From a virus (taxonomy: Duplodnaviria; Heunggongvirae; Uroviricota; Caudoviricetes), in IMG/VR virus record IMGVR_UViG_2675903324_000005: a stretch of 37,769 bases of DNA. One strand, given 5' to 3'. Below, in pieces: positions 3,001-6,000 of this stretch. The position numbers are program-made. The stretch's first letter is position 1. Each line of letters starts with the position of its first letter.

Positions 3001-6000
3001 CATCACTAAAAGGTGTGCACTGATGAATTATCCAACTATCGTTAACGGCATCGATTTCCGAGATCTGATTTTTGTGGCAAACAACGATCCGGTTACAGAT
3101 TCTTTTATGGTGGCAAAAGCATTTGGAAAGCTGCCGAAGAACGTAGTTCGTGACATTGAACGAACCATAGAAGCTTGCCCTCCTGAGTTTGATACAAAGC
3201 TCAACTTTGAGCTTTGCTATAAAAACAATGAGTTACAGAATGGTAAGCCGCAAAAATTCTACCGTCTCCGCAAGGATGGGTTGATGCTTTTGGTTATGTC
3301 CTACACCAAAAAAGAAGCAATGCGTATCAAAATTGCTTACATCAACGCATTTAACTGGATGTACGCCATGCTTCAGGTTGGTCATCGTCAATTTGAAGAA
3401 GAGAGAAATGCCGTAATGCTGGAGTACATGAAAGAGAAGGATGTTGCCAGCATGTCAGGTCGCCTGCTAAATCGCTGGGGCAAAATTAAGAAGCCACAGC
3501 TGCTGGCTAGAATTGAACGCCTTGAACAGCACGGGCAAACCGTAATCCCCGGACTCATCAATTAACGGCAGTACCGCGAAACAACCCAAGCCAGAAAGTG
3601 GGGAAATAACACTGGCAGCCACTGAAAGATGAACCTCCTGCCTTATGGCAAAAAAGATTCTTTGTGGTGGCGGACTGATGGAAAGACATCCTAATCAAGC
3701 AACCACTCCACAGGGTCATAATTATGAACGACCAGCAAATCGAAAAAGAAATCGTTGAGAAAGGCAAAACGGCACCGCGAATCACCCAGCAGCACATCGA
3801 AGACGTGATTAAAAGCGAGCATTACTTTACTGCTTATGATGGACGAAATGGTGCCATTTCCAGCAACGAATATTGTGGCAGGGAAAAACCAGAAGAAGGA
3901 GATCGTGATTTATCACCATTGAAGTTGCTCACTTTCTGCGTACTGGTGCTGAAGAATGGCTTCACTGTCACCGGAGAGAGTGCCTGTGCAAGCCCGGAAA
4001 ACTTTGATGCAGAAATTGGTCGGAAGATTGCCCGGCAGAATGCTGTAAACAAAATCTGGATGCTCGAAGGTTACTTGCTGAAGCAGAAGCTAAGCGAACA
4101 GTAGTTATTACAAAAGCCATTCCCTACAGAGTGGCTTTGATAATGGCTTATACCCTACACGGGATAACTTAACTGATATCCCTTTTAACGGATAAAGGCA
4201 TTTCAGCCTGACATAGCCATGCGCCGCATCGTCGCCGTATTCCCGCATTAACAGAGACCGCAGCCACCTTATCTGCGTGAGTGTGCGGGGATAATCAAAA
4301 ACGATGCACACCGGGTTTTCTCATTTTTCACGAGATGGGAGCGATTTCCCGCGAAGCCGCCTGTCCGGTGCGGTGGTGGAAGAAACCGGATAAAACAACC
4401 GCATTGTGCAAATATCGATCAAATATGGTGCTGCTGTGTGAAATCTGAAAAATCACAGCGGTCATTATGCATCAGTTTTTAACACAGGACGTCAGAACGT
4501 GACATGGCAAAGCTGGACTGGAAAAAGCTGGAGCAGGCATTCCGACGCGAACATGCCGAAACGGGAATAACATTACTAGACTGGTGCCGGAAGAAAAAGA
4601 TTAATTACAACACCGCCAGAACCCGTATAAAAATGGGCAAAATCGATCATGAAATTGATCATAAAACCGATCATGAAATCGATCATGACATCTCAGATGA
4701 AGAACCCTGCAATGACGCGGGTTCCGGCGATGAAAAATGCGCAAAAAACTCTGAAAAAAACTGCGCAAATTCGGCAGAAACGAAACGGATTCGTGGTTCC
4801 CGACTTTTACCTCCTTCAAACGCTTTTTCTCAGCGAAACACCCACGCCGTAAGACACCGTGGATATGCGAAGTATCTTGAGGCAGATAACCTCATGGATG
4901 ATGCGTCCGACATGGTGCTGTTCGATGAACTGGTGTTCACCCGGGCCCGCGCACTTTCAGTAACTAAGGCACTTAAAGGGATGTTCGCCGACCTGGAAGA
5001 GGCAACTGACGTGGAAACCCGTGTTGCTCTTTACGACAAAATACTCAAAGCTGAACAGGCCCTTGACCGGAATATTGCCCGTATCGAGTCAATTGAACGC
5101 TCATTGCTGACGCTGGACGTCCTGGCTGAGACAGCACCAAAACTTCGTGCTGACCGGGAAAGAATCAACGCCGCCAGAGATAAACTCAGAGCTGAAACCG
5201 ATATTCTGACCAGCCAGCGTCGGGGCGTTGTTACGCCTGTCAGTGACATCGTGTCATCGCTGCATGAAATGAGTAATTCGGGGAGACTGGATGACATTCC
5301 GGAAGAATGAACCGCGATGTGATGAGCCGTCAGAAATGACCGAGGCTGAACAACGTCTGTTCATCATGACTAAACTGAGCAATCCCTGGTGGCGGCTCAA
5401 TCATCTCTACAAAATACAGAACGAAAAAGGTGAACTGGTCACCTTCAGAATGCGACCGGCGCAGCGCCAGTTGTTCCGGAGCATGCACAATAAAAATATT
5501 ATCCTGAAAGCGCGCCAGCTGGGATTTTCCACAGCCATTGATATTTATCTTCTCGACCAGGCATTATTCATTCCGCATCTCAAATGCGGGATCGTCGCTC
5601 AGGATAAACAGGCTGCCAGTGAAATTTTCCGCACAAAAATTGCTGTACCGTTTGATCATCTCCCTGACTGGCTGAGAGCCTCATTCACCATCGTTGAACG
5701 TCGTAGCGGTGCCAGCGGTGGCTATATCCTGTTTGGTCACGGCTCGAGTATCCAGGTGGCAACCTCATTCCGTTCAGGTACGGTGCAGCGCCTGCATATC
5801 TCAGAGCACGGCAAAATTTGCGCGAAATATCCGGCTAAGGCGAAAGAACTGCGAACCGGTACGCTTAATGCCGTCTCTGATGAATGCATTATTTTTGATG
5901 AGTCCACAGCTGAAGGCGTGGGTGGTGATTTTTACGAGATGAGTAACCGAGCACAGGAGATCACTGCATCAGGCTTATCGTTGACGGCACAGGATTATAA

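Follow-up and report, generated by a model that had tools for sequence, protein, structure and literature searches.

Regularly spaced YGATCA hexamers inside the small terminase gene of a 933W-type Stx phage: a candidate recognition array for headful packaging

The 37,769 nt stretch analysed here (the window; IMG/VR virus record IMGVR_UViG_2675903324_000005, Caudoviricetes) belongs, in the region of interest, to the short-tailed Shiga toxin (Stx)-converting phages of the 933W/Sp5 type (Sepvirinae), with 99–100% identity to phages Ss-VASD, POCJ13, P13374 (the O104:H4 phage) and VT2-Sakai as well as to many Stx2a prophages. It contains the packaging genes terS and terL, for the small and large terminase subunits, followed by a P22-like portal gene (Table 1), and the element under study is a short array of Dam sites (GATC) located inside terS. 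No model from Pfam or NCBIfam covered the window TerS. In phylogenies of TerL, the 933W-type enzymes form a class designated 'headful (933W type)' (PMC7317114; PMC9144972).

The array comprises four hexamers of the form YGATCA (CGATCA at 4644, TGATCA at 4656, CGATCA at 4668 and CGATCA at 4680), whose GATC sites, at 4645, 4657, 4669 and 4681, follow an exact period of 12 bp and are all part of a GATCAT sequence (YGATCAT with the preceding base). Tandem Repeats Finder (TRF) reported a single array at 4640–4692, with period 12, 4.4 copies and 82% matches, and a super-unit of 24 bp (20/24 positions identical by eye) is an equally valid description. The four sites are in codon phase 0 of the terS open reading frame (ORF), reading GAT CAT (Asp-His), and the array encodes residues 47–62 of TerS, IDHEIDHKTDHEIDHD. 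The listing of sites, the TRF result and the codon phase confirm the statement of the first-pass annotation that terS contains four GATCAT with a 12-bp period. The window is poor in GATC, with 106 sites against 148.9 ± 11.5 expected from dinucleotide-preserving shuffles, every one of which had at least 106, and this scarcity makes the terS cluster stand out more. At most three GATC fall within any other span of 40 nt in the window, clusters of four being expected ca. 0.02 times under a Poisson model, and GATCAT occurs four times in the array versus twice in the remaining 3.8 kb examined (P = 1.8e-7). Nevertheless, the four sites belong to one tandem repeat and duplication makes such a cluster in one step, so they are not independent and their significance must come from relatives.

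An AlphaFold2 model of TerS, built with an alignment of 22 sequences, predicts an N-terminal helix-turn-helix (HTH) domain with three helices (residues 6–20, 24–30 and 35–41), a disordered linker (residues 46–109) and a long helical hairpin (residues 130–237). According to this model, the array would code for the disordered linker between the DNA-binding HTH and the presumed oligomerisation core, so that binding sites could evolve there at little cost for the protein. Comparison of the model to PDB structures with Foldseek retrieved only generic coiled coils (best E = 0.17), and a PDB profile search for TerS retrieved nothing. The sequence HEIDH appears twice in residues 49–63 (window 4648–4692) and is a formal match to the HExxH zinc-binding motif; this match is probably meaningless, given the predicted disorder and the alternation of His and Gln in relatives.

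The same array was found in a lineage of Salmonella prophages, with ca. 60% protein identity and the helix YNTARTQIK, which carries YGATCA at nt 141, 153 and 165 of the gene, that is, with the positions and period of the window; one member contains additional YGATCA at nt 177 and 189. The Salmonella units are AGTGATCAAAAA (encoding SDQK), AGTGATCATAAA (SDHK), AACGATCATGAA (NDHE), AACGATCACAAT (NDHN) and AATGATCAAAAA (NDQK). The 12 distinct units present across the window and Salmonella lineages all keep A-N-Y-GATCA, their third residue being His or Gln, and the Asp preceding a C-initial codon is encoded by GAT in 15/15 array units versus around 50% elsewhere. When IMG/VR was scanned for three YGATCA spaced by 12 bp and the matches were filtered with an HTH profile, more lineages emerged with the array directly after a PacA-type HTH. 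These include PacA-like proteins of 424–425 aa from contigs of ca. 92 kb, with five to six hexamers (L254, L170 and L237), a protein of 437 aa with five (L222), the L229 type of 281 aa with four, and L159, of 284 aa, with five.

A protein search identified 379 TerS homologs, of which 120 were listed, and DNA was compared for 30 species-representative genomes, 80 viral contigs and the loci of selected proteins. Nearly all of the 120 listed homologs have a short repeat after the HTH. Within nt 120–300 of the gene, the top hexamer in the 30 genome loci and in 42 distinct viral-contig alleles was one word with 3–7 copies, which is found 0–4 times in the other ca. 3.6 kb per locus (Poisson P 1e-4 to 1e-13). 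The window lineage uses YGATCA; Pectobacterium, Brenneria sp. and Symbiopectobacterium use TTCGCA; and TGCGCA is the word in Escherichia coli phages of the GER2 type, in Citrobacter, Brenneria, Serratia, Yersinia, Aeromonas and Xenorhabdus, and in Salmonella-type alleles from viral contigs. A search of the literature for TGCGCA and terminase found no description of TGCGCA-type arrays in terS.

The distribution of these words among reading frames points to the DNA, and not the peptide, as the conserved element. In 50 non-redundant loci there are 291 TGCGCA hexamers, with a spacing of 9–14 bp (commonest 9–10, 12 and 14 bp), and they occupy phases 0, 1 and 2 in 33, 58 and 200 cases, the encoded residues being Cys-Ala, Val/Met/Leu-Arg (VRK, MRR or LRK) and x-Ala-Gln/His. 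When a CA-codon follows, Ala is encoded by GCG in 204/218 cases within TGCGCA arrays versus 8/54 elsewhere in terS, and the base preceding that Ala codon is T in 206/218 versus 21/54. A word that is kept across reading frames is a DNA-level element, which a peptide repeat cannot explain. Copies of YGATCA in phase 1 occur in L229, L254 and phage P1, indicating frame independence also for GATC. The Asp-His repeat of the window is best regarded as a by-product: Gln can take the place of its His, and the words of relatives give Ala-Gln, Val-Arg or Cys-Ala instead.

Additionally, the word of the array corresponds to the type of DNA-binding domain (DBD). A recognition helix starting with Asn-Thr (NTAR, NTGR or NTPR) is common to all lineages whose GATC array is regular, namely the window, the Salmonella lineage, L229/L159, L254/L170/L237, L222 and P1. 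PacA from phage D6 has Asn-Thr too, although its GATC cluster is loose. In TGCGCA lineages the helix starts with D-T, G-T, A-T, S-T, Q-S, H-S, D-S or N-S, followed by A-R-R-[YH] (the ARRY helix), and in the TTCGCA lineage it is S-S-A-K-R-Y. None of the 120 listed homologs departs from this correspondence. Where the C-terminal body is retained but the N-terminal DBD is unrelated, as in L276 and L277 (Table 1), TGCGCA and GATC arrays are both absent and each locus has an array of its own in that place, for a total of five DBD types and five words. These two loci suggest a general modular rule by which a DBD is accompanied by its cognate array.

The HTH and the array are also exchanged together among genes that are otherwise at least 90% identical. 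The sliding identity of the window to phage GER2 is ≥0.9 on both flanks and drops to 0.37–0.73 inside 4552–4752, where GER2 contains, in place of the GATC repeat, AAAA-N-TGCGCA repeats encoding SAQK or NAQK. Since the exchanged block includes HTH helices 2–3 plus the repeat, it behaves as a cassette. The window still holds two TGCGCA and one TGGGCA (4738, 4762 and 4634), which occupy places of array members in TGCGCA-type relatives and look like decaying leftovers of an ancestral TGCGCA array; both TGCGCA positions are lost in the Salmonella GATC lineage. The sister arrays of the TGCGCA type have the same location in the gene (nt ca. 130–260) and the same disordered-linker context as that of the window, whereas their word lacks a Dam site, their helix is x-[ST]-A-R-R-[YH] instead of N-T-A-R-T-[RQ], and their spacing is less regular.

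The one arrangement of this kind defined by experiment is pac from phage P1, and several comparisons connected the window TerS with PacA from this phage. With blastp, LDWKKLEQAFRREHAETGITLLDWCRKKKINYNTARTRIK from the window aligned with a 39-residue segment of the PacA N-terminus (E = 0.009); the window TerS matched the PacA family phrog_1711 along residues 5–94 (E = 3e-5), PacA matched phrog_370 along residues 3–104 (E = 1.9e-4), and alignment of the HTH with PacA using hhalign gave E = 1.4e-4 and a probability of 53% over 43 residues. Likewise, a hidden Markov model of the HTH compared to 197 ORFs retrieved the PacA-like L254 (E = 5e-12) and L222 (E = 3e-10), and L254 in turn matched PacA from phage D6 (E = 7e-12). 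Judging from these profiles, the HTH from TerS is remotely homologous to that from PacA. The P1 pac, a site recognised by PacA and PacB, is annotated inside pacA, directly after the HTH-coding part, with hexamers at 1302, 1309, 1321 and 1336, encoding MIIDHSNDQHAGDH, and at 1432, 1444 and 1455 (coordinates in L041), and with a site for integration host factor (IHF) and the cleavage points between both groups. It has been shown that the site, with seven TGATCA/G hexamers, is bound when hemimethylated, that full methylation promotes cleavage, that the hexamers are needed for packaging and that synonymous mutation of the hexamers reduces the P1 titre ca. 9-fold (PMC10028697). The window resembles P1 in having the site within the small-terminase gene, directly after the HTH-coding part, and in that its four hexamers fit TGATC(A/G) on one or the other strand (TGATCA once and CGATCA, the reverse complement of TGATCG, three times). 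In both, GATC is mostly in phase 0 and encodes Asp-His or Asp-Gln peptides (IIDHSNDQHAGDH in P1), the recognition helix has the same N-T-A-R start and packaging is of the headful type.

From these comparisons of sequences, we consider it probable that the four YGATCA hexamers are binding sites for TerS itself and constitute the recognition part of a headful pac. TerS would oligomerise via its C-terminal helical hairpin, with the N-terminal PacA-type HTHs, on tethers of disordered linker, each reading one hexamer of the 12-bp-spaced array; the nucleoprotein complex would then recruit TerL, which would make a first cut nearby, followed by headful packaging. Multiple sites for the HTH of the small terminase beside the cleavage site are established in other phages, such as the R-sites of lambda cosB, bound by gpNu1, and the pacL and pacR boxes of SPP1, bound by G1P. 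As proposed here, in these phages the repeated sites for the DBD of the small terminase nucleate terminase assembly, although their TerS families, site sequences and positions are different and lambda is a cos packager.

Several observations weigh against a function of the array as the TerS recognition element of pac. We found no published pac map, termini or end-mapping for 933W-like phages, and on this subject the literature found goes no further than TerL trees in which they are labelled '933W-type headful'. The homology to PacA is weak, as indicated by the hhalign probability, and confined to ca. 45–100 residues, the rest of TerS being unrelated. The window has one regular 12-bp array, whereas P1 has two irregular clusters (HEX4 and HEX3) flanking a cleavage region of ca. 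90 bp, and both the IHF consensus WATCAANNNNTTR and its core ATCAANNNNTT are absent from the two strands of 4100–5300, whereas P1 has an IHF site. In pacA from D6, where a regular array was expected, five GATC are loosely grouped within 132 nt, mostly as RGATCA and in either orientation, and the distant relative L071 (Pseudoalteromonas) has no array. The number of units ranges from 1 to 7 among alleles. Moreover, the codons for the HTH are only 20–60 bp from the array, such that their co-inheritance is expected without functional coupling, and the correspondence of domain and word rests on a handful of independent switches. In spite of this proximity, linkage would not seem to account for everything, in view of the frame-independent conservation and of the distinct word that accompanies each DBD type. 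The D6 cluster may represent a third layout of GATC-type pac.

Some of these points define the relation to P1 more precisely. Besides the single array and the lack of an IHF consensus, the window shows no second GATC arm, the nearest other GATC being at 4417 and 5590, and has a TerS body (268 aa) unrelated to that of PacA (397 aa) and a TerL of the 933W type. Because of these differences, the site would be better described as a variant of the P1-type pac arrangement, and a simpler relative of it, than as a member. The suggestion in the first-pass annotation of a P1-type packaging site in terS was therefore strengthened by the HTH homology, the hexamer consensus, the Salmonella array and the family-wide pattern of words and DBDs, while the second arm and the IHF site of the P1 layout were not found.

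The N6-methyl groups of GATC are located in the major groove, which is the groove read by an HTH, and Dam methylation would probably affect either the binding of TerS or a later cleavage, as in P1. Provided that the array is part of pac, its sensitivity to Dam is, by analogy, a serious possibility, to which we give somewhat less than an even chance; it is deduced from the match of the hexamers to the P1 consensus, the same N-T start of the helix and the location of the methyl groups. Dam control would not be a property of the family, because the family has at least five alternative words, GATC being just one. Ss-VASD, a complete close relative, encodes an MT-A70-family adenine methyltransferase (E = 1.3e-22) with a neighbouring ORF annotated as 'adenine methylase', and also an Eco57I-like methylase beside a restriction endonuclease. 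The 'Dam' from VT2 phages belongs, we assume, to the MT-A70 group, and GATC specificity of the Ss-VASD enzyme would bear on Dam control. More speculatively, and with considerable doubt, PacA-type small terminases could follow a simple evolvable code: a T-N-N-N-C-A hexamer, repeated in the DNA that encodes the protein's own linker, would have its central bases chosen by the residues with which the recognition helix begins, and the 'N-T' class would read Dam-methylated GATC.

The array could instead be a protein-binding site unrelated to packaging, either for autoregulation of the operon by TerS or as a Dam/SeqA-timed site coupling late functions to replication, although we consider this unlikely. 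Clustered GATC at about one helical turn are a type of target for SeqA when hemimethylated, as in the oriC 13-mers, P1 oriR, pap and agn43, and the four sites of the window, at 12-bp spacing, agree with the density of such clusters (two or more sites within ca. three helical turns); besides, the link between array and DBD shows recognition and not its purpose. However, SeqA/Dam clusters are found in origins or promoters, whereas the array is part of a coding sequence, and 3900–5000 shows neither promoter-like nor terminator-like sites. Most relatives contain equivalent words without GATC (TGCGCA, TTCGCA, GGTAC, TCCGTC), indicating that a Dam/SeqA role is not the function of the family, and the hexamers in the homologous P1 layout are recognition elements of pac.

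Distinctly unlikely, in our opinion, is that the array is a neutral microsatellite, i.e., a slippage-prone variable number tandem repeat of 12 bp tolerated in the linker DNA, with its GATC coming from a founding Asp-His GAT-CAT unit. The number of units is certainly polymorphic, with three in LC645447 and others and in one IMG/VR contig, five in L109 and P0025, and seven in P0001, the alleles with one and two units having been seen only in the partial proteins P0020 and P0016; the linker is predicted to be disordered and is hypervariable, and tandem duplication alone accounts for four identical GATCAT in one genome. Given the 12-nt unit, all these alleles are in frame, which is not the behaviour of a contingency (phase-variable) locus. 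Neutrality is contradicted by the presence of GATCA at identical gene positions across ca. 40% protein divergence while the flanking codons, even that for His, change. It also does not explain that sister lineages keep another word in three frames, with the bias for GCG described above, and that each DBD type has its own word.

The first-pass annotation had offered the gap of ca. 400 bp preceding terS (4105–4503) as an alternative location for a cos or pac site. A pac or cos located elsewhere, for instance in this gap, with an unrelated array in terS, is very unlikely on the present comparisons. A gap of similar length precedes terS in the Salmonella relatives, the segment 4191–4503 is conserved among close Stx phages, and it includes a lone CGATCA (4416). 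Conversely, only the last 86 nt of the gap (4418–4503) are common with GER2, at 87% identity, the remainder being lineage-specific, and the gap has nothing in common with the Salmonella or Citrobacter relatives. We found in it no repeats, no convincing ORF, no Rfam match and no promoter-like or terminator-like site, so the gap is disfavoured, and the terminase is of the headful and not of the cos class. It is doubtful that the lone CGATCA belongs to the site, the Salmonella loci having upstream GATC at varying positions or none. Finally, the possibility that the repeat matters as a peptide, forming a His/Asp-rich metal-binding segment with its two HEIDH as HExxH motifs, hardly deserves credit, because the Salmonella and PacA-like lineages have either His or Gln at this place, other relatives have AQ, VRK or CA instead, and the segment is predicted to be disordered and varies in its number of units.

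The 933W/Sp5-type phages are carriers of stx2 in the most dangerous lineages of E. coli, and a candidate of only 42 bp opens to test the starting point of packaging, the proneness of particular chromosomal regions to lateral or generalized transduction from these prophages, and the possible control of virion production by a Dam enzyme from the host or the phage. If the code outlined above were true, packaging initiation in major Stx2 phages (933W, Sp5 and the O104:H4 phage) would be gated by DNA methylation and the replication state, as in P1, and swapping the 200-bp cassette would re-target packaging specificity. The association of a DBD with an array of words in its own linker codons could allow the prediction of pac sites and their specificity from sequence for enterobacterial, Aeromonas and P1-like phages, and its natural diversity would supply orthogonal TerS/pac pairs with which transducing particles could be engineered.

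Table 1. Location of the terS array, its neighbouring features and related sites in other phages. Coordinates refer to the window unless preceded by a locus handle.
Feature	Coordinates	Strand	Basis or remarks
Lone CGATCA, 228 bp before the array and 87 bp upstream of the terS start codon	4416..4421	unstranded	Not conserved in relatives
terS, small terminase subunit, 268 aa	4504..5310	+	ORF; phrog_370, E = 3.8e-125; annotated as terS/terminase in close relatives
N-terminal three-helix HTH domain of TerS	4519..4626	+	AlphaFold2, pLDDT (predicted local distance difference test) 85–89 for residues 11–40; PacA homology
Specificity cassette, HTH helices 2–3 plus hexamer array	4552..4752	+	Only part of terS/terL diverging from phage GER2
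Recognition helix, Y35-N-T-A-R-T-R41	4606–4626	+	
TGGGCA, one mismatch from the TGCGCA that relatives carry at gene nt 131	4634..4639	unstranded	Sequence
Predicted disordered linker, residues 46–109, hosting the array	4639..4830	+	pLDDT <50; hypervariable in the family
Array of four YGATCA hexamers, each with a Dam site; proposed TerS recognition array (pac recognition element)	4644..4685	unstranded	12-bp period
TGCGCA hexamer, phase 0 (Cys-Ala), probable relic of a TGCGCA-type array	4738..4743	unstranded	Lost in some alleles of the window lineage and in the Salmonella GATC lineage
Another TGCGCA, also in phase 0 (Cys-Ala)	4762..4767	unstranded	Position kept in most TGCGCA-type relatives
Long helical hairpin, residues 130–237, presumed TerS oligomerisation core	4891..5214	+	pLDDT >90; strongest conservation in the family
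terL, 933W-type large terminase subunit; presumably the nuclease/motor that TerS recruits	5291..6997	+	phrog_2, phrog_24361
P22-like portal gene	6997..9141		Downstream of terL
L276 array (unrelated DBD), TCCGTC/GACGGA x5	L276:1630–1710		
L277 array (unrelated DBD), GGTACG x3 plus inverted GTACC x2	L277:1625–1695		
D6 pacA GATC cluster, gene nt 316–447	L274:1076–1210		D6 PacA helix FNTARKHLN
Methylase regions of Ss-VASD (Shigella phage)	L157:3004–4058 and L157:16471–18860		

Complete E. coli genomes with the GATC-type cassette number 387 out of 5,426 and represent, among others, O157:H7, O104:H4, O111, O26 and O103; identity is mostly ≥99%, with four units, and around 17 of the 387 contain alleles shorter by 12 bp, O26 strains among them. 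In LC727844 and six similar Stx2a prophages, terS is broken a few bases after a GATC array of three units (ca. window 4693; L275:2501–2700), and the interrupting sequence starts with TGAACCGCCCCGGG, which we take to be the terminal repeat of an IS3-family (IS629-like) insertion sequence (IS). The TerS matches of 1–55 aa in the LC7278xx prophages were considered as a packaging-related junction and rejected, as they are due to IS insertion; prophages with this interrupted terS should be packaging-defective. Records PV189404 and PV189406, which break inside terS, were likewise rejected as evidence for DNA ends, since they have merely been re-opened at the start of terL. Elsewhere in the window, tandem repeats of 45 and 63 bp at 15635–15873 (score up to 296) have many GGN-CCN-NNN triplets and probably correspond to a collagen-like Gly-X-Y segment of a tail-fibre gene.

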